Of a DNA stretch of 18,384 nucleotides, positions 328 to 12,552 are shown piece by piece (within the stretch, counting starts at the first letter, position 1; each line of letters opens with the position of its first letter). The stretch is taken from the IMG/VR virus record IMGVR_UViG_2645727539_000015. One strand, given 5' to 3'. The DNA comes from a virus (lineage: Duplodnaviria > Heunggongvirae > Uroviricota > Caudoviricetes). The notes under the pieces are model-generated. The model was not told where the DNA came from, did not search any database, and was given only the letters and a program-made list of their open reading frames with translations. The translations under genes were made by a program, and so were the position numbers.

Positions 328-561
328 GGGATATAAAGATACCGAGGAAATGATTTGTGTTATAACAAAAACCATCTTAATCTGTTAAGAGTGGTCACTC
401 CGTCATACAGCTTAAACCTGCCGCCTGGCGGGTTTTTTATGCCCAAAATCGCGTCAGTACAGTAAACACGCTGGTGGTTGCGAATACAGGTCTTTCAGCT
501 TGCTGGCTTTTTCGACAAGAGTTATTGGTATGTCACGTTAACCGGAAAAGGGAAAAAAGGC

Positions 562-759
562 ATGCTAAAACAGCAGGATATGACAGAAACCGCCAGAGTG
601 GTGTTTAATGAATTAAGCGTTACCGACCCGGCGACAGTCGGGGAGATTGCGCAGAATACTTACCTTTCACGCGAACGCTGCCAGTTAATACTGACCCAGC
701 TGGTTATGGCGGGTCTGGCAGACTATCAGTTTGGTTGTTACAGACGCCTTCAGTCCTGA
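562..759 (+). CDS. hypothetical small phage protein (66 aa from ATG 562; track ORF 478 begins at TTG)
   Basis: ATG at 562 preceded by purine-rich GGAAAAGGG; stop TGA 757-759 lies inside an intrinsic terminator hairpin. No family recognised with certainty. Confidence 0.4.
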   Translation: MLKQQDMTETARVVFNELSVTDPATVGEIAQNTYLSRERCQLILTQLVMAGLADYQFGCYRRLQS

Positions 760-769
760 AGGCTTTTTT
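746..769 (+). terminator. rho-independent terminator (7-bp stem GCCTTCA/TGAAGGC, loop GTCC, T6)
   Basis: Perfect inverted repeat 746-752/757-763 followed by TTTTTT 764-769, overlapping the stop codon of the 562..759 ORF. Confidence 0.55.
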
Positions 770-909
770 ATTTGTGGTAAATGGGCGGCTGGTGGGTGTT
801 AGGGGCACTCACCAGCCATCTGCTCATGCGTCTGGATCACAAGCAAACCTCAGGCCCACTGCTTTGCGCAAAAGCAGAATGAGCCTATCAGAGACAGGCT
901 TAATGATCC

Positions 910-1969
910 ATGCTTAATACTGTAAAAATATCCAGTTATGAGTTAATCAACGCCGACTGCCTGGAATTTATGCGGTCGTTACCCGAAAATTCTGTTGACC
1001 TGATAGTCACGGACCCCCCCGTACTTCAAAGTGAAACCCGAGGGCTGGGATAACCAGTGGGCGGGTGATGAAGATTACCTGAAGTGGCTGGACCAGTGTC
1101 TTGCGCAGTTCTGGCGGGTGCTGAAACCAGCCGGAAGTCTTTACCTGTTCTGTGGCCATCGCCTGGCATCTGACATCGAAATCATGATGCGTGAGCGGTT
1201 TAACGTACTGAACCATATCATCTGGGCAAAGCCGTCCGGACGCTGGAACGGGTGTAACAAGGAAAGCCTGCGGGCGTATTTTCCGGCCACAGAGCGCATT
1301 CTGTTCGCGGAACATTATCAGGGGCCGTATCGCCCGAAAGATGATGGCTGTGAGGCGAAGGGCAGGGCACTGAAACAGCATGTGATGGCCCCGCTGATTG
1401 CTTACTTTCGTGATGCGCGCGCTGCCCTGGGGATAACGGCAAAACAGATTGCAGATGCCACAGGAAAGAAAAACATGGTGTCGCACTGGTTCAGTGCCGG
1501 TCAGTGGCAGTTGCCGAACGAAAGTGATTATCTGAAATTACAGGCGCTGTTTGCCCGGGTGGCAGAAGAGAAGCATCAGCGGGGTGAACTGGAAAAGCCC
1601 CACCACCAGCTGCTGGAGACGTATACTTCACTGAACCGGCAGTATGCGGAACTGCAGAGTGAATATAAGCATCTGCGGCGGTATTTTGGCGTGACGGCGC
1701 AGGTGCCGTACACGGATGTGTGGACGCACAAACCCGTACAGTTCTATCCCGGGAAACATCCGTGCGAAAAACCGGCAGAAATGCTGCGGCAGATAATCAG
1801 TGCGAGCAGTCGTCCGGGAGACCTGGTTGCAGATTTCTTCATGGGGTCAGGTTCAACGGTAAAAGCGGCGCTGTCACTGGGACGTCGGGCGATTGGTGTT
1901 GAGCTGGAGACCGGACGTTTTGAGCAGACAGTCAGGGAAGTTCAGGATTTTATCAGTCAGAACGGATGA
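910..1969 (+). pseudogene. beta-class DNA N6-adenine/N4-cytosine methyltransferase, split by a +1 frameshift in a C7 tract
   Basis: ATG 910 frame reads MLNTVKISSYELINADCLEFMRSLPENSVDLIVTDPP then stops at 1051-1053. The track ORF 1031..1969 (GTG start) continues in the next frame and ends with the AdoMet motif DFFMGSGST. Removing one C from the C7 run 1014-1020 gives in-frame DPPYFKVKPEGW, restoring the catalytic DPPY motif. Confidence 0.8.
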
Positions 1970-2860: not shown

Positions 2861-3021
2861 CGGTAAAACTGCGCCTGGCCATTGTGGTAGTTCTGCTGTT
2901 TCTTGTCGTGATGGTGGACTTCAGCAGCCGGATAATGTCAGTGCTGGCAGATGGGATGCTGGTGGCTGGTGTTGTGGTTGTTGTTTTCCCGTTGCTGAAA
3001 AAGAAAACAACAGGTGGTTAG
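2857..3021 (+). CDS. possible small membrane peptide (54 aa), start overlapping the TerB-like stop
   Basis: GTG 2857 overlaps stop TGA 2858-2860 (GTGA); GGAGAA lies 7 nt upstream. Translation VTVKLRLAIVVVLLFLVVMVDF...GMLVAGVVVVVFPLLKKKTTGG has two hydrophobic segments and a basic C-terminus. Absent from the ORF track; the overlapping track frame 2826..3125 is Trp/Cys-rich and looks non-coding. Confidence 0.3.
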   Translation: MTVKLRLAIVVVLLFLVVMVDFSSRIMSVLADGMLVAGVVVVVFPLLKKKTTGG

Positions 3022-3263
3022 CAGGGTATCAGTTAGCCGGCGAAATTTTTAAATACCTCACAATTCAGCAAGTTTATGATTGTCTGGCTGACTGCGAATT
3101 TGTTAAAAATCGCGTCGCATGGTGAATCCCCCTCAGCGGCGGGGCATATCAGTACAGGTGTTTTCGTTTAGCCTTATCCTTTCTGTGCGGGTTCAGGTAC
3201 TGATACTGAACTCACCGGGAGGCACCCGGCACCATGCAGTATACAGAGATTAGGCATATCACC

Positions 3264-3289
3264 AGCCCCCTCTTCGGAGGGGGCTTTTT
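3264..3289 (+). terminator. rho-independent terminator (9-bp stem, UUCG tetraloop, T5)
   Basis: AGCCCCCTC-TTCG-GAGGGGGCT followed by TTTTT 3285-3289. Confidence 0.6.
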
Positions 3290-3386
3290 ACATGCAAAAA
3301 AAGCCCGCGTAGGGGGCGGGCGGTAAGAAATAAAACAAAACGTGAAGAAAATTATTCAGCTATTGGATAATACCTGAGGATTATGA

Positions 3387-3497: not shown

Positions 3498-5411
3498 ATG
3501 GCATTTAAACATTATGATGTGGTCAGGGCTGCGTCGCCTTCAGACCTTGCGGAGCGACTGACACAAAAACTGAAGGAAGGCTGGCAGCCGTTTGGCAGCC
3601 CGGTCGCCATTACCCCTTATACCCTGATGCAGGCGATTGCCGCAGAAGGGGATGTCACCACGCCTGTCGTGGTGACACCGGAGGAAGGCGGTGCGGTGGT
3701 GAGCGATCCGACCCGTGAGCCTGAATATTACTATGTGCTGGTCACCGCAGGTCAGTCCAACAATATGGCAACCGGCGAAGGTATGCCCCTGCCTGACAGC
3801 TACGACCGTCCCGATCCACGCATTAAGCAGCTGGCCCGCCGCAGTGTGGTCCGACCGGGTGGTGCTGCCTGTAAATACAACGATGTGATTGAGGCCGATC
3901 ACTGTCTCCATGACGTTGAAGACATGAGTGCCAAAAATCACCCCAACGCGGACCTTTCCCGTGGTCAGTATGGTTGTGTCGGGCACGGCCTGCATATTGC
4001 CAAACGTCTTCTGCCCTATATTCCGGTTAATGCGGGGATCCTGATTGTGCCGTGCAGTCGTGGTGGCTCTGCGTTTACCGATCGTGATGAGGGTACCTAT
4101 AACCCGGAGACGGGGGCAACAGCGGATTCCTCCCGCTGGGGTGTGGGTAAACCGTTGTACATGGATTTAATTGCCCGCACGAAGGCGGCCCTTGAAAAGA
4201 ATCCGAAAAACGTCCTGCTGGCCGTGTACTGGATGCAGGGCGAGGGTGACTGTATGTCTTCAGGTTACACGGGGCATCCGGCGTTGTTTACGGCCATGGT
4301 GAAACAGTTCCGTACCGATCTAGCCGCGTATGCCGGTCAGTGCCTGGGCGGCGATGCGGCCCGTGTACCCTGGGTATGTGGTGACACCACCTTCTGGTGG
4401 AAGCAACAGTACCCGACACAATACAGCCTGGTTTATGGCGCGTACCGTAAAAACAGTGAGCCGAATGTGCATTTTGTCGAACTCATGAAGGATGAGACCG
4501 GTGCGAATGTTCCGACCAATAACCCGGCAGAAGATCCGGATGTGCCGGAAGCAAATTATTACGGTGCAGCATCACGCACGGCGGGTAACTGGACGAACCC
4601 GACACGCGCCATGCATTTCAGTTCCTGGGCCCGTCGCGGCATCCTGCCGGACCGTATAGCCACCGCAATCCTGACCCATGCAGGGCGTAACGGACCGTTC
4701 CTTGCCGGTGGAGATATAACGGAAAACTATCCGGAACCGGCAAAACCGAAGAGTAACGTTACCACCCTGTACAGCGGTGCAGAAAGTGAAGGTGCTTATG
4801 CCGAACAGGGCTGGACGCTGAGCGAAGGTAAGGCGGAAGTGGTACAGGATGAAAGCAGTGCTTCCGGACGGGCGCTGAAACTGAGCCAGGATGAAGCAAT
4901 GAACCTGAAGCTGACCCGTGAAGTGGCAAATGCGGCGGAACTGCTGAAAAACGGCGGTAAAATTACCTGTCGTTTTAAAATACCGGGAAGTGCGAACGGA
5001 AAACAGATAGCCCTGGCGATGTATCTGCAGCTGAAGGAAAGCGATATCCCTGAAGGTGTGGAATTTGCCAATAAGGCGGACGGTACCCATCCGTTCCTGG
5101 TGGCGTTCTATCTGCAGACAGAAACGGATGGCAAACTCAGTCTGATGCACAATGGTGCAGCGCAGACGCGTGTTGCGGGATACGGTACGCTGAACAGTGA
5201 ATGGCACACACTGGAGCTGGTATATCCGGGAGGAGGCCAGAACACGGTGACGCCGTATGTTGATACGGTAAAAGCTCCGACCACACAGCTGTCCTGGTTT
5301 AAATATGAAGGACAGGAGAACACGCTTATTCTGACGGATGCGTCGAATACAGCCACGTATGAAACGTGGATTGACGCGCTGACAGTGGAAGTAAACAGTC
5401 CGGCAGCCTGA
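3498..5411 (+). CDS. nanS-p: prophage NanS-p-type sialate (9-O-acetyl-Neu5Ac) O-acetylesterase, 637 aa
   Basis: ATG 3498 with GGGAGGA 5 nt upstream. N-terminus MAFKHYDVVRAASPSDLAERL is DUF1737-like, followed by a sialate-O-acetylesterase/SGNH-type region (YYYVLVTAGQSNNMATGEG) and a C-terminal domain. The position after the tRNA triplet matches the large esterase ORF of Stx-converting phages as I recall it. Confidence 0.85.
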   Translation: MAFKHYDVVRAASPSDLAERLTQKLKEGWQPFGSPVAITPYTLMQAIAAEGDVTTPVVVTPEEGGAVVSDPTREPEYYYVLVTAGQSNNMATGEGMPLPDSYDRPDPRIKQLARRSVVRPGGAACKYNDVIEADHCLHDVEDMSAKNHPNADLSRGQYGCVGHGLHIAKRLLPYIPVNAGILIVPCSRGGSAFTDRDEGTYNPETGATADSSRWGVGKPLYMDLIARTKAALEKNPKNVLLAVYWMQGEGDCMSSGYTGHPALFTAMVKQFRTDLAAYAGQCLGGDAARVPWVCGDTTFWWKQQYPTQYSLVYGAYRKNSEPNVHFVELMKDETGANVPTNNPAEDPDVPEANYYGAASRTAGNWTNPTRAMHFSSWARRGILPDRIATAILTHAGRNGPFLAGGDITENYPEPAKPKSNVTTLYSGAESEGAYAEQGWTLSEGKAEVVQDESSASGRALKLSQDEAMNLKLTREVANAAELLKNGGKITCRFKIPGSANGKQIALAMYLQLKESDIPEGVEFANKADGTHPFLVAFYLQTETDGKLSLMHNGAAQTRVAGYGTLNSEWHTLELVYPGGGQNTVTPYVDTVKAPTTQLSWFKYEGQENTLILTDASNTATYETWIDALTVEVNSPAA

Positions 5412-6252: not shown

Positions 6253-6786
6253 GTGAGTCAGAAAGTCCGTTATGGTTTATCGGCTGCGGTTCTGGCGCTG
6301 ATTGCCGCAGGTGCTTCTGCGCCTGACATTCTTGACCAGTTTCTGGATGAAAAGGAAGGTAACCACACCACGGCATACCGTGATGGTGCGGGTATCTGGA
6401 CCATCTGCCGTGGTGCCATTCTGGTGGATGGTAAACCTGTTGTTCCGGGGATGAAGTTGTCGAAGGAAAAATGCGACCAGGTTAATGGCATTGAACGTGA
6501 TAAGGCGCTGGCATGGGTGGAGAAAAACATCAGAGTGCCACTGACTGAACCCCAGAAAGCGGGGATCGCGTCATTCTGCCCGTACAACATTGGCCCCGGT
6601 AAGTGTTTTCCGTCGACGTTTTATAAACGAATTAATGCAGGTGATCGAAAAGGTGCCTGCGAAGCGATTCGCTGGTGGATTAAGGACGGTGGCAGAGACT
6701 GCCGTATCCGCTCAAACAACTGCTACGGTCAGGTATCCCGTCGTGACCAGGAAAGTGCGCTGGCGTGCTGGGGCATCGACAGATAG
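6253..6786 (+). CDS. R: SAR (signal-anchor-release) endolysin, T4-lysozyme-like
   Basis: GTG start 4 nt after the holin stop; N-terminal Gly/Ala-rich weak TM segment YGLSAAVLALIAAGASA; catalytic E/D/T spacing (EGNH..RDGAG..WTICRG) typical of the family and of pinholin partners. Confidence 0.85.
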   Translation: MSQKVRYGLSAAVLALIAAGASAPDILDQFLDEKEGNHTTAYRDGAGIWTICRGAILVDGKPVVPGMKLSKEKCDQVNGIERDKALAWVEKNIRVPLTEPQKAGIASFCPYNIGPGKCFPSTFYKRINAGDRKGACEAIRWWIKDGGRDCRIRSNNCYGQVSRRDQESALACWGIDR

Positions 6787-7919: not shown

Positions 7920-8414
7920 ATGAACCGCGTTCTGTGTGTGGTCATCATTGCCCTGCTGGTGGCCTGTGGTGCGCTTAGTCTGGGGCTGAATCATTACCGC
8001 GATAACGCCATTACCTACAAAGCGCAGCGCGATAAAAAAGTCAGTGAGCTGAAACTGGCAAACGCAACCATTACTGATATGCAGCAGCGCCAGCGTGATG
8101 TTGCTGTGCTCGATGCAAAATACTCGAGGGAATTAGCCGATGCGAGAGCTGAAAATGAAACTCTGCGTGCTGATGTTGCCGCTGGTCGTAAGCGCCTGCG
8201 GATCAACGCCACCTGCTCAGGTACCGTGCGTGAAGCCACCGGCACCTCCGGCGTGGATAATGCAACCGGCCCCCGATTGGCAGACACCGCTGAACGGGAT
8301 TATTTCATCCTCAGAGAACGGTTGATGACAATGCAGAAGCAGCTGGAAGGGGCGCAGGAATATATCCGCACTCAGTGCACTAAGCTGGCTTTTTATTATC
8401 CGGAGGATACATGA
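7920..8414 (+). CDS. Rz: i-spanin Rz
   Basis: N-terminal TM then [45 protein letters not shown]...[22 protein letters not shown], very close to lambda Rz; GAGGGGG SD. Confidence 0.85.
8140..8325 (+). CDS. Rz1: o-spanin Rz1 lipoprotein, embedded in the +1 frame of Rz
   Basis: [20 protein letters not shown] lipobox followed by proline-rich [32 protein letters not shown], lambda Rz1-like; lies wholly inside Rz. Confidence 0.8.
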
Positions 8415-10130: not shown

Positions 10131-10260
10131 GCCAGTTAACATGTTAACTGGCTGTCCGGGCATTTTTGCGGTTTTTATCTTTATTATTCAGTTTGTTGTG
10201 CGAAAAAAATGTTAACTGGCTTTTTCAGCAAATGTTAACCAGGCAGCAGTTAACATTTGC
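10131..10260. repeat. cos/pac-like recognition region: 22-bp perfect palindrome plus repeated ATGTTAAC motifs
   Basis: GCCAGTTAACATGTTAACTGGC (10131-10152) is its own reverse complement. Further ATGTTAAC/GTTAACAT copies occur at 10209-10216, 10232-10239 and 10250-10257, separated by an AT-rich block, in the HNH-terS intergenic region. Confidence 0.45.
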
Positions 10261-10330: not shown

Positions 10331-10894
10331 GTGCTGACAACGCAAAAACGAAAATTTGCGCTGGCGCTCATGTCCGGGAAAAACAAAACAGCGTCAGCCA
10401 TTGCCGCCGGTTATTCGGCGAAGACCGCCAGGGTTAAAGGCTCGCAGCTGGCAAAAGATCCGGAGGTGCTCGCGTTTATAGCCCGTAAACAGTCCGAAAC
10501 GGTGGAGGTGGATGAGGTTCCTGTTTACCGGCAGAAAAAATCAGAGCAGGAGGATAAACCCCGTCGCCGTGAGGTGGCTGCAATACCACAGCCGGACGAA
10601 ACAAATCCGGAGATGCCACCGCCCGTGGTGATATCTCCTGGTATTGAGTATATGGAGGACGGTCTTCCCGATCCGGTGAAAGCGATGGGGCGTCTTCTGG
10701 TGGAGAACATTAATACCGACCCCAGGCTGGCGCTGGATGCGGCTTATAAGCTGGCGCAGTTCACGCACCACAAAAAAGGGGATGCCGGTAAAAAATCGGC
10801 AAAAGGTGACGCGGCGAAAAAAGCGGCTAACCGTTTTGCGGTGCCACTACCACCCCGACTGGTGGTGAATAATGATAATGAGGGCAACGGATGA
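10331..10894 (+). CDS. terminase small subunit
   Basis: N-terminal HTH region KRKFALALMSGKNKTASAIAAGYSAKTARVKGSQLAKDPEV typical of the Terminase_2 family; GTG start after GGAGGAGG; stop overlaps the terL start (ATGA). Confidence 0.7.
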   Translation: MLTTQKRKFALALMSGKNKTASAIAAGYSAKTARVKGSQLAKDPEVLAFIARKQSETVEVDEVPVYRQKKSEQEDKPRRREVAAIPQPDETNPEMPPPVVISPGIEYMEDGLPDPVKAMGRLLVENINTDPRLALDAAYKLAQFTHHKKGDAGKKSAKGDAAKKAANRFAVPLPPRLVVNNDNEGNG

Positions 10895-12552
10895 TACCTG
10901 TGTGGAGCACGGCCTGCCCGGACTGGGCAGAGCGCCTGAAAAAGGGGCTGTCGATTATTCCGGCCCCGATTTATCCGGATCAGGCTGCACATGCACTGGC
11001 GATTTTTAAACAACTGCGGATTGTGGATGCACCGGGCAGCCCGACGTTCGGGGAGTCCTGCGCACAGTGGGTGTTTGACCTGGTGGCGGCCCTGTTTGGC
11101 TCCTACGATGCGCAGACTGGTGTACGCCATATCAAGGAAGTTTTTATCCTTATCCCCAAGAAAAACTCGAAGTCCACGCTGGCCGCAGGGATCATGATGA
11201 CTGCACTGTTACTGAACTGGCGGCAGGCGGCGGGCTACACGATTCTGGCCCCGACAGTGGAGGTGGCAGCCAACGCCTTCAACCCTGCCAGGGATATGGT
11301 ACGACGGGACGATGATCTGGATGACCTCTGTCAGGTGCAGACACATATCCGGACCATCACCCACCGGGTGACAGACACCACCCTGAAGGTGGTGGCAGCC
11401 GATCCGAATACGGTGTCCGGTATCAAGTCCGTGGGTACGCTGATTGATGAGCTGTGGCTGTTTGGCAAGCAGTACAAGGCGGAGGACATGTTACGTGAAG
11501 CCATAGGTGGCCTTGCCTCCCGCCCGGAAGGGTTTGTGGTGTATACGACCACCCAGTCGAATGAACCGCCCGCCGGGGTGTTCAGACAGAAACTGCAGTA
11601 CGCCCGGGATGTGCGCGACGGCAAAATTCATGATCCGCACTTTCTGCCGGTGATCTTTGAACACCCTCCTGAAATGGTGGAAAGCGGGGCTCACCTGCTG
11701 ATGGAAAACCTCGCCATGGTCAATCCGAATCTCGGCTATTCAGTGGATGAGGCCTTTCTGTACCGGGAGTATCGAAAAGCACGGGAAGCCGGTGAAGAGA
11801 CATTCCGGGGCTTCATGTCAAAACACGCCAATGTGGAAATTGGTCTTGCCCTGCGCTCTGACCGCTGGGCGGGGGCGGATTTCTGGGAAGAGCAGGGCCG
11901 TTGTATCAGCCTGGACGATATCCTGCTGCGTGCTGATGTGGTGACAGTGGGGATTGACGGCGGAGGGCTGGATGATCTGCTGGGGATGTATGTGATTGGG
12001 CGTGACCGGGAGACCCGCGAATGGCTGGGCTGGGGCCATGCCTGGGCGCATGAAACCGCGGTGGTCCGACGGAAGAGCGAGGCGTCCCGGTTTCAGGATC
12101 TTGTTGCCTGTGGAGATATGACCATTGTCCGGCGTGTCGGGGATGACACGGCGGAAGTGGCGGAATATGTGCGTCGCATTCATGAGGCTGAGTTACTGGA
12201 CCATATCGGTATTGACCCGTCAGGGGTGGGGCAGATTCTGGATTCACTGGCGGAAGCCGGGATCCCTGAAGGAATTGTGGTGGGGATAAGCCAGGGCTGG
12301 AAACTGGGTGGGGCCATCAAAACCACCGAGCGCAAACTGGCTGAAGGGGTGCTGATTCACGGTGACCAGCCCCTGATGGCCTGGTGTGTCGGCAATGCCC
12401 GGGTGGAGCCTAAAGGTAACGCCATCCTTATTACCAAACAGGCCAGCGGACGGGGGAAAATTGACCCGCTGATGGCGCTCTTCAATGCGGTATCCCTGAT
12501 GTCCCTGAATCCGGAGCCCAAAAAGAAAGAATATGCGGTTTTTTTCATATAA
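10891..12552 (+). CDS. terminase large subunit (553 aa)
   Basis: Length, position and conserved blocks (FILIPKKNSKSTLAAGIMM Walker-A-like region; C-terminal nuclease region VTVGIDGGGLDDL...IGIDPSG) match phage large terminases. Confidence 0.9.
   Translation: MIPVWSTACPDWAERLKKGLSIIPAPIYPDQAAHALAIFKQLRIVDAPGSPTFGESCAQWVFDLVAALFGSYDAQTGVRHIKEVFILIPKKNSKSTLAAGIMMTALLLNWRQAAGYTILAPTVEVAANAFNPARDMVRRDDDLDDLCQVQTHIRTITHRVTDTTLKVVAADPNTVSGIKSVGTLIDELWLFGKQYKAEDMLREAIGGLASRPEGFVVYTTTQSNEPPAGVFRQKLQYARDVRDGKIHDPHFLPVIFEHPPEMVESGAHLLMENLAMVNPNLGYSVDEAFLYREYRKAREAGEETFRGFMSKHANVEIGLALRSDRWAGADFWEEQGRCISLDDILLRADVVTVGIDGGGLDDLLGMYVIGRDRETREWLGWGHAWAHETAVVRRKSEASRFQDLVACGDMTIVRRVGDDTAEVAEYVRRIHEAELLDHIGIDPSGVGQILDSLAEAGIPEGIVVGISQGWKLGGAIKTTERKLAEGVLIHGDQPLMAWCVGNARVEPKGNAILITKQASGRGKIDPLMALFNAVSLMSLNPEPKKKEYAVFFI

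Follow-up and report, generated by a model that had tools for sequence, protein, structure and literature searches.

A candidate minus-strand structured RNA with an embedded Chi site upstream of a DNA methyltransferase gene in lambdoid prophages

A conserved block upstream of the methyltransferase gene

The window analyzed here is a stretch of 18,384 nt from a Caudoviricetes record (IMG/VR IMGVR_UViG_2645727539_000015) that represents the late region of a lambdoid, Shiga toxin (Stx)-phage-like prophage. We focused on the interval between a small open reading frame (ORF) and a DNA methyltransferase gene, for which a preliminary description had pointed out a long stem-loop and a self-complementary decamer. 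Both are situated within a block of ~135 nt (773-910) that is conserved upstream of the N6_N4 DNA methyltransferase gene and that probably contains the gene of a structured RNA on the minus strand, with a Chi site embedded in one of its helices. The immediate locus contains the following features.

562-759: ORF of 65 amino acids with a winged-helix-like product
746-769, plus strand: terminator of this ORF, found by a consensus scan
788-795, plus strand: Chi octamer GCTGGTGG, inside the stem arm 787-798
ATG at 910, plus strand: start of the N6_N4-family DNA methyltransferase gene

The stem, called P1 in the following, is present as initially described: GGCTGGTGGGTG (787-798) pairs with CACTCACCAGCC (806-817) over 12 bp with one wobble pair (G795-U809, plus strand) and a 7-nt loop, and the preceding terminator at 746-769 was recovered by the consensus scan. 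Stems of at least 12 bp with at most one G-U pair and a loop of 3-10 nt were present in 7 of 100 dinucleotide shuffles of the window, and at 0.07 per shuffled window the judgment that such a stem is unlikely by chance holds. The real window has two on the plus strand, at 787-817 and 10228-10260. The fold of 740-915 beats shuffles on both strands (z of -4.85 and -4.38). The decamer TTTGCGCAAA was located at 863-872. Perfect palindromic decamers occur at chance level, with 16 observed in the window vs 17.9 in shuffles, and this one is meaningful only because it is conserved. The absence of a U-tract 3′ of the stem was also confirmed. The plus strand continues as AUCUGCUC and the scan calls only 746-769 on this strand; the stem does not qualify as a Rho-independent terminator, and a second terminator is ruled out.

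Of 5426 complete E. coli genomes, 2884 had a BLAST match to positions 730-930. The block is also found in phiP27, 1720a-02, many Stx2a and Stx2d phages and several Stx2e phages, and sits between the Q/late promoter region and stx. Including variants added by queries with divergent methyltransferases, ~160 distinct sequence variants were identified in Escherichia, Salmonella, Klebsiella, Erwinia and Gilliamella prophages and in Aeromonas phages. Loci from 44 species-level genomes (including Escherichia albertii, Salmonella, Citrobacter, Klebsiella, Enterobacter, Kosakonia, Buttiauxella, Erwinia, Mixta and Gilliamella) were retrieved via the methyltransferase protein, hence without bias toward the hairpin. 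Nearly all of them carry the ~135-nt block immediately upstream of the methyltransferase start codon. Looking from the other side, a protein-independent DNA-pattern scan of viral contigs returned 116 elements, 115 of which precede a DPPY methyltransferase ORF.

The gene upstream of the element is variable among the 44 species-level genomes and the hundreds of viral contigs in which the element is conserved, and the element persists where the small upstream ORF is missing or of another kind. CTGTGRAAATGGGCG (window ~773) forms the left edge of the block regardless of the upstream gene. The hairpin therefore belongs to the methyltransferase module. A regulatory role toward the methyltransferase appears plausible. 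Among the prophage regions of strain Sakai that were examined, only Sp9 contains the element; it was not found in Sp3, Sp6, Sp10 and Sp15, nor in the examined part of Sp12.

The most distant member of the RNA family (L333/L334, Aeromonas phage phiARM81ld type, 931-1277) lies upstream of a zinc-ribbon ORF of the Mu Com-like type (PF10122, 26.8 bits), the end of which slightly overlaps the methyltransferase gene that follows. A Com-like ORF at this place, past the RNA element and ahead of the methyltransferase, would agree with tight post-transcriptional control of this gene family.

Two other explanations of the region were rejected. A mosaic joint does not account for the stem, the BLAST breakpoints at ~779, ~799 and ~831 being real events of other kinds. 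The first is the left edge of the block. The second stems from an insertion sequence of the IS3 family in L056 (E. coli Z0117EC0013, position 2570), inserted exactly past the left stem arm, in the P1 loop. The third reflects replacement of the methyltransferase in L055 (O55:H7 CB9615) and L057 (ETEC1716), which diverge directly after P1 (~2590); a gene for a helix-turn-helix (HTH) domain protein stands in place of the methyltransferase and a decaying half-element remains. A leader peptide starting ATG(781) GGC GGC TGG TGG..., which reads MGGWWVL-stop in many variants, was rejected because neither the length of this ORF (3 to >30 codons) nor its sequence is conserved.

Architecture and covariation of the element

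On the minus strand, the comparison of variants shows an element with a predicted length of ~100 nt, consisting of a hairpin, P3 (877 to 859), followed by a three-way junction formed by P0 (858-854/786-782), P2 and P1.

859..877, minus strand: P3, the 5′ hairpin CUGCUUU-UGCGC-AAAGCAG, which includes the palindrome TTTGCGCAAA
854..858, minus strand: P0 closing helix, 5′ strand UGGGC, pairing with 782-786
818..848, minus strand: P2, 11 bp, GUUUGCUUGUG (848 to 838) pairing with CAUGAGCAGAU (828 to 818)
787..817, minus strand: P1, the stem-loop noted initially, with two-sided changes in 9 of 12 pairs
782..786, minus strand: P0 closing helix, 3′ strand GCCCA, 100% paired
772..781, minus strand: 3′ tail after P0, UUUACCACAA, with a conserved AUUU(U/C)CACAG motif, at the left edge of the conserved block

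The window's own minus-strand fold matches this consensus. It has a minimum free energy (MFE) of -42.9 kcal/mol (z -3.4), the MFE structure equals the centroid (frequency 0.29), and it comprises a 7-bp P3, a 5-bp P0, a 5-nt joint, an 11-bp P2 and then P1. On this strand P1 reads GGCUGGUGAGUG-CCCCUAA-CACCCACCAGCC, with one A-C mismatch opposite the last Chi base. P2 has a variable 9-nt loop (837 to 829). On the minus strand, G-U accounts for four of the 11 P2 pairs, and these would be A-C mismatches on the plus strand. The initial idea of an RNA element thus stands as far as a selected structure linked to the methyltransferase gene is concerned, but this structure is not a free-standing stem-loop in the plus-strand message. 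The decamer is no separate protein-binding site but the apical part of P3, and its sequence varies (GCGC, GTGCAC, ACGCGT) while the stem stays.

Covariation across related prophage regions had been proposed as a check, and pairing is indeed retained through many two-sided changes in the relatives. We built a covariance model (R1) and realigned 96 hits to obtain a model-fitted alignment, A7. Here, 94.5% of the pair cells are standard, 21 of 33 pairs changed on both sides, and 201 two-sided cells stand against 43.1 +/- 8.5 in shuffles, with none of 500 shuffles as high. In A5, a structure-naive MAFFT alignment, the respective values are 92.4% paired and 110 two-sided cells vs 27.2 (0/500). Shuffle controls overstate the significance because the sequences share descent and horizontal transfer. 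In slid controls of A7, with the partners moved by 1-3 columns, pairing was only 36-56%.

The changes are spread over all helices. P2 is 96.9% paired and has five pairs with two-sided changes, P3 shows such changes in 4/5 modelled pairs, and P0 has compensatory changes in the Gilliamella and Aeromonas members (CG to GC, UA to GC, GC to UA). RNAalifold, applied to an independent plus-strand alignment, found P0 (TGGGC/GCCCA) enclosing P1 as well as part of P2, one pair of which occurs as C-G, U-A and A-U. Distant members (L317, L323, L283 family, L338, L350, L333) retain P1 with wholly different arms, for instance the following.

P1 arms in L317: GACAGTGAGGATG / CATCCCCACTGTC
P1 arms in L323: GACCGATGAGTG / CACACATCGGTC
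P1 arms in the L283 family: GACTGTAAAAGTG / CACCTTTACAGTC
P1 arms in Gilliamella: GACTGATACATG / CATGTAGCAGTC
P1 arms in L350: GATCGGAGAGCG / CACTCTTCCGATC

With R1, a 44-bit member was found in phiARM81ld-type Aeromonas phages in which P0, P1, P2 and P3 are all re-coded. These alignments show that the predicted base-pairing is kept by compensatory changes across phages of Enterobacterales, Orbales and Aeromonadales.

No Rfam 15 family matched the element at gathering thresholds in 700-1000. A permissive search (E up to 10, both strands) gave P26 as the best match, with 17.2 bits vs a cut-off of 36 and an E-value of 0.61. Elsewhere in the window, the Rfam matches are only three tRNAs and STnc100.

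Strand, predicted promoter and 3′ end

The wobble pairs point to the coding strand. When read on the minus strand, G-U cells outnumber A-C cells by 361 to 62 overall, and standard pairing reaches 94.5% vs 84.7% on the plus strand. The bias is most pronounced in P2, with 293 G-U vs 6 A-C cells, and is also seen in P3 (44 vs 2). RNAfold favors the minus strand in 125 of 161 variants and each time gives the same junction; the plus-strand folds differ between variants, and that of the window is ill-defined. This pattern fits an RNA copied from the minus strand. On this reading, the extent and strand given initially were wrong: the 12-bp stem is real, but it is one helix of a three-way junction apparently encoded on the other strand.

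Directly ahead of P3, we detected promoter-like motifs.

882..890, minus strand: predicted extended -10, TGATAGGCT, with TG at 890-889 and the hexamer TAGGCT at 887-882
905..910, minus strand: weak -35-like hexamer TGGATC, 17 nt upstream of the -10, abutting the methyltransferase ATG at 910

On the plus strand the -10 motif appears as the conserved GAGCCTATCA. Of 160 variants, 153 have TGnTA[GA]GCT, invariably 6-7 nt ahead of the P3 stem and separated from it by bases that vary. The Aeromonas phage member has TGATAAGCT at identical spacing. The start of transcription is predicted near 875-877, at the first bases of P3. The -35-like hexamer includes a GATC (Dam) site (905-908), which is situated 2 nt ahead of the ATG of the methyltransferase gene. 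Of 152 motif-bearing variants, 148 have a GATC at a fixed distance of 14 nt from TG. From these positions we infer a role for the GATC site and the -35-like hexamer. In the Aeromonas phages, the corresponding GATC precedes the Com-like ORF. Together, the motif and its spacing strongly suggest that the element forms a separate RNA gene on the minus strand, transcribed from a sigma-70 promoter of the extended -10 type that belongs to it.

At the other end, P1 is followed on the minus strand by GCCCA and then 2-4 U, which does not make a canonical terminator. The 3′ tail might act as a weak site of termination or processing; the RNA may extend further, antisense to whichever gene lies upstream.

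In Sakai Sp9, the element occupies 1772842-1772947 (minus strand), with ECs_1779 on one side and the methylase gene ECs_1780 on the other. An Hfq peak from cross-linking and analysis of cDNA (CRAC), called EcOnc49, has been mapped to 1772764-1772808 on the minus strand of the Sakai genome (Tree et al., Mol Cell 2014, PMC4104026 Table S2). The peak follows the element on this strand at a distance of 34 nt and is the only experimental hint of expression. Within the Sp9 locus (L356), the peak is at 3765-3809 (minus strand; window 694-738), where it faces the 3′-terminal part of the 65-aa ORF in antisense. A hairpin with UUUUUCCCUUUU after it lies beyond the peak on the minus strand (L356 ~3655-3620) and could end an antisense RNA of ~320 nt spanning the whole small ORF.

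A Chi site within helix P1

The left arm of the stem contains a Chi octamer, which the preliminary description had overlooked. It is one of six in the window, where 1.02 were expected and none of 200 shuffles had as many. Five are on the plus strand, within the ~10 kb that lead up from the Q side to the terminase genes, including the one in P1 (788). The others are as follows.

470-477, plus strand: Chi octamer
1603-1610, minus strand: Chi octamer
2958-2965, plus strand: Chi octamer
6671-6678, plus strand: Chi octamer
7955-7962, plus strand: Chi octamer

Chi is absent from the ensuing 10 kb of structural genes. A Chi site is actively oriented when the 3′ end of the octamer strand points toward the RecBCD entry end, which is the right cos end in lambdoid phages (PMC12315714). 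Judged from the terminase genes downstream on the plus strand (10331-12552), the octamer at 788-795 has this active orientation. The Chi site in the P1 arm is thereby shown to be oriented such that it would stop RecBCD coming from the right cos end.

We compared the two P1 arms in the 72 variants with a GGCTGG/CCAGCC outer stem. The full octamer is kept in 60 of them, and the summed positional entropy is 1.13 bits for the Chi arm vs 4.66 bits for the partner arm. By this measure, the Chi arm is more conserved than pairing demands. The P1 A-C mismatches of the window and phiP27 types face Chi positions 6-8 (T793, G794, G795); a compensating change there would destroy Chi. A few variants took the compensating change and lost Chi (GGCTGGCGGGTG types). 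One variant type, from O25b and E. albertii, has a perfect Chi on both arms. The Gilliamella, Aeromonas phage and L283 family members have no Chi and keep the stem, which is therefore the older, general feature. On this comparative evidence, Chi is a second function layered on the helix in phages of Chi-using hosts, and P1 appears as a clear natural example of two selective layers, RNA helix and Chi, acting on the same bases. The signature of both layers is visible in the sequences: one arm is frozen, its partner is free, and mismatches occur exactly where repair would kill Chi.

Further features of the window

The wider map of the window is typical for the late region described above, with the following features.

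Up to 327: 3′ end of a moron ORF
418-440: terminator between the moron ORF and the 65-aa ORF
2010-2256: three tRNA genes (Ile, Arg, Arg by annotation in relatives)
3087-3295: STnc100 small RNA (sRNA), full-length match with 159.9 bits, upstream of an esterase gene
10331-12552, plus strand: terminase genes, preceded by esterase and lysis genes and followed by the portal gene

The moron site of the window is without stx genes. A promoter-like TTGTGT-N17-TAATCT lies at 355-383, followed by the strong terminator at 418-440, and homology to phages with other Q proteins starts at ~383; the interval 355-440 may be a PR′/tR′ unit that would yield a short StxS- or 6S-like RNA. The methyltransferase start is without a Shine-Dalgarno sequence, as read from the window. 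Its reading frame ends near 1050 and picks up again in the ORF 1031-1969, owing to a frameshift at 1013-1019 within the catalytic DPPY motif, where the window has GACCCCCCCGTAC (a run of seven C) vs GACCCGCCGTAC in relatives. Either the gene is a pseudogene or the frameshift stems from a sequencing error in the homopolymer.

In the other 12-bp stem of the window (10228-10260), AAATGTTAAC (10230-10239) pairs with GTTAACATTT (10250-10259). An extra copy of AAATGTTAAC is found at 10207-10216, ~70 nt upstream of the gene for the small terminase subunit. The repeats within 10205-10260 are possibly a cos-region or terminase-binding repeat.

Interpretation and alternatives

We consider it probable that the block encodes a structured minus-strand RNA with an embedded Chi site. 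Several observations weigh against this. The predicted promoter is a motif match only, and a generic promoter scan, which needs 9/12 hexamer matches, found none on either strand of 300-1000. A convincing terminator is missing past the junction, the U-run being 2-4 U long and lost in the Gilliamella and Aeromonas members. The EcOnc49 peak is outside the element and passed in only three CRAC data sets. In P1 the wobble pattern runs opposite to that of the other helices, with 23 G-U vs 54 A-C cells on the minus strand, as a plus-strand RNA would show; we explain this exception by the constraint that Chi imposes on the P1 arm. The late mRNA on the plus strand necessarily carries a weaker mirror image of the structure, Watson-Crick pairs being strand-neutral, and this could matter. 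To these points the shared ancestry behind the shuffle statistics has to be added.

As to its function, we tentatively propose antisense silencing. The minus-strand promoter would be active in the lysogen and give rise to a stable, highly structured antisense RNA. Transcription from P3 would run convergent with the Q-dependent late transcript that enters the methyltransferase gene, the tRNA genes and, in related phages, stx. The RNA would be complementary to the leader of the late mRNA (-34 to ~-135 relative to the ATG) and would pair with read-through late mRNA, possibly followed by RNase III cleavage. Alternatively, its transcription would collide with read-through polymerases (transcriptional interference). 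In either case, the methyltransferase and the downstream late genes would stay silent until Q-modified polymerase overrides the block. Through the conserved GATC of its -35 region, the promoter may be tied to the state of Dam methylation. If it is antisense to the late transcript, the RNA would be a candidate brake on leaky expression of methyltransferase, toxin and lysis genes in lysogens. An alternative left open by the EcOnc49 peak is a trans-acting, Hfq-dependent role. A more elaborate version, which we regard as rather improbable, is a Dam-sensitive antisense switch whose promoter would read the methylation or replication state of the prophage and whose RNA would gate PR′ read-through into methyltransferase, tRNA, stx and lysis genes, with the gene co-opted for Chi. 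If true, one 31-bp stretch would serve transcription control, RNA structure and genome-end protection in Shiga-toxin phages. Two further ideas on control of the methyltransferase were rejected: complementarity of an RNA loop to the methyltransferase start amounts to only 4-6 bp around the self-complementary GATC and is unconvincing, and a plus-strand methyltransferase promoter inside the block would have poor hexamers by eye and was absent from the scan.

From the gene order, the late transcript must cross the element on the plus strand, and a structure that acts in cis within the 5′ leader of this mRNA ahead of the methyltransferase, such as a processing site, a stabilizer or a translational control, has to be weighed. 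All Watson-Crick pairs form on the plus strand too, and P1 of the E. coli type has G-U pairs there, including G795-U809. The plus-strand MFE structure pairs GGAUCA (834-839) with UGAUCC (903-908) beside the start codon, which has no Shine-Dalgarno sequence. P2, however, would contain 293 A-C mismatched vs 6 wobble cells on this strand, overall pairing drops to 84.7%, the MFE structures are inconsistent across variants, and TGnTAnGCT at its fixed distance of 6-7 nt from P3 has no plus-strand role, which makes this explanation improbable. Even less likely is a function at the DNA level only, in which a Chi site has a decayed inverted copy and the hairpin is incidental. In its favor are the excess and the orientation of Chi sites in the window, the constraint on the Chi arm and not on its partner, and a variant type with perfect Chi on both arms. 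As sole explanation, this is largely refuted by the Chi-less members (L317, L323, L283 family, Gilliamella, Aeromonas) that keep the stem; some variants even sacrifice Chi to restore a pair (GGCTGGCGGGTG types), and P0, P2 and P3, which contain no Chi, covary also.

The perfect 16-bp palindrome GCTTTAGCGCTAAAGC of many variants and the small TrmB-like ORF upstream in E. coli phages (a weak Pfam match with 17.4 bits, below the cut-off of 25.6) could suggest operators for a dimeric DNA-binding protein, either the 65-aa winged-helix-like protein or the methyltransferase's own HTH insert. We give hardly any credence to this, as half-sites are not conserved; the arms are replaced wholesale and only complementarity is kept. 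Single-base bulges and G-U-type asymmetries are present, palindromic decamers are at chance frequency, and the element persists without the upstream small ORF or with a different one. Multi-hairpin elements of ~100 nt serve as single-strand initiation (ssi)-type signals in some plasmids and small phages. A single-stranded DNA structure of this kind, for example a priming signal on the strand displaced in rolling-circle replication, would agree with these known cases and with the proximity to Chi sites involved in late replication and recombination. The 2-5 G-T pairs among the 11 of P2 would be unstable as DNA, though, and both the conserved promoter-like motif directly ahead of the structure and the minus-strand Hfq-bound RNA nearby speak against such a signal, which we likewise consider extremely improbable.

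Comparison with known systems

The minus-strand RNA appears to resemble in kind the antisense and structured regulatory RNAs of phages, such as C4, OOP, sar and the convergent sRNAs of enterohemorrhagic E. coli (EHEC). The C4 antisense RNA of phages P1 and P7 (RF01695) is a compact phage regulatory RNA of ~77-100 nt with a closing helix and two hairpins. The element shares this compact folding, a closing helix with two hairpins, but the C4 model RF01695 gives no match to it (E up to 10, both strands). C4 shares a transcript with its target, which it precedes, and is released by RNase P cleavage; the element is without a CCA-like 3′ end after P0. OOP and paQ of lambda and sar of P22 are short RNAs from promoters facing the main transcript, which have been proposed to damp expression by pairing or interference. 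These differ from the element in being simple hairpin or terminator RNAs of early or immunity regions that lack a conserved multi-helix fold. The com-mom operon of phage Mu is an example of a tightly controlled DNA-modification gene, with GATC sites near the promoter and the zinc-ribbon protein Com as a translational activator. Similarity exists in the control of a DNA-modifying gene and in the Com-like ORF between RNA and methyltransferase in the Aeromonas member. In contrast, the window has no Com gene, the enzyme is an N6_N4 methyltransferase and not Mom, and mom is not known to have an RNA gene.

The convergent sRNAs located downstream of PR′ in EHEC (AgvB, AsxR and partners; PMC4104026) are antisense to the Q-dependent late operon, as the element would be. 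AgvB and AsxR are 51-60 nt long, are encoded between the moron and the esterase gene, and have their own Rfam models without a match here. The element, by comparison, has ~100 nt and a three-way junction and precedes the methyltransferase gene, and its conservation extends far outside Escherichia. An identity with AgvB, AsxR, their convergent partners or the Pas sRNAs was rejected as these are located near esterase and holin genes, not at the element. Likewise rejected were StxS, since the papers on StxS and xenogeneic-silencing sRNAs do not mention the locus, and STnc100, which is encoded at 3087-3295. In a literature search, a published description of the structured RNA was not found. The block is unannotated despite its presence in over half of the complete E. 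coli genomes that were searched; the calibrated model R1 is usable for annotating the RNA family.

For Chi, the closest precedent are lambdoid phages without their own recombination module, which have right-end clusters of actively oriented Chi (Zheng, Casjens, Davidson, Amundsen, Smith, Genome Res 2025, PMC12315714). In the Chi-rich phages, the exact octamer is on the top strand of the standard map, with the terminase to the left, and several copies cluster within the final ~10 kb ahead of cos. The window shares this pattern, with five of its six sites in that class against 1.02 expected, the state of the recombination module not being visible within the window. Thus, the Chi aspect is already known in kind. 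PMC12315714 treats Chi sites as free-standing octamers, whereas the Chi site described here is built into the arm of a conserved RNA helix, which places two constraints on the same 8 bases. An RNA that shares its bases with Chi is the unusual feature of this locus.

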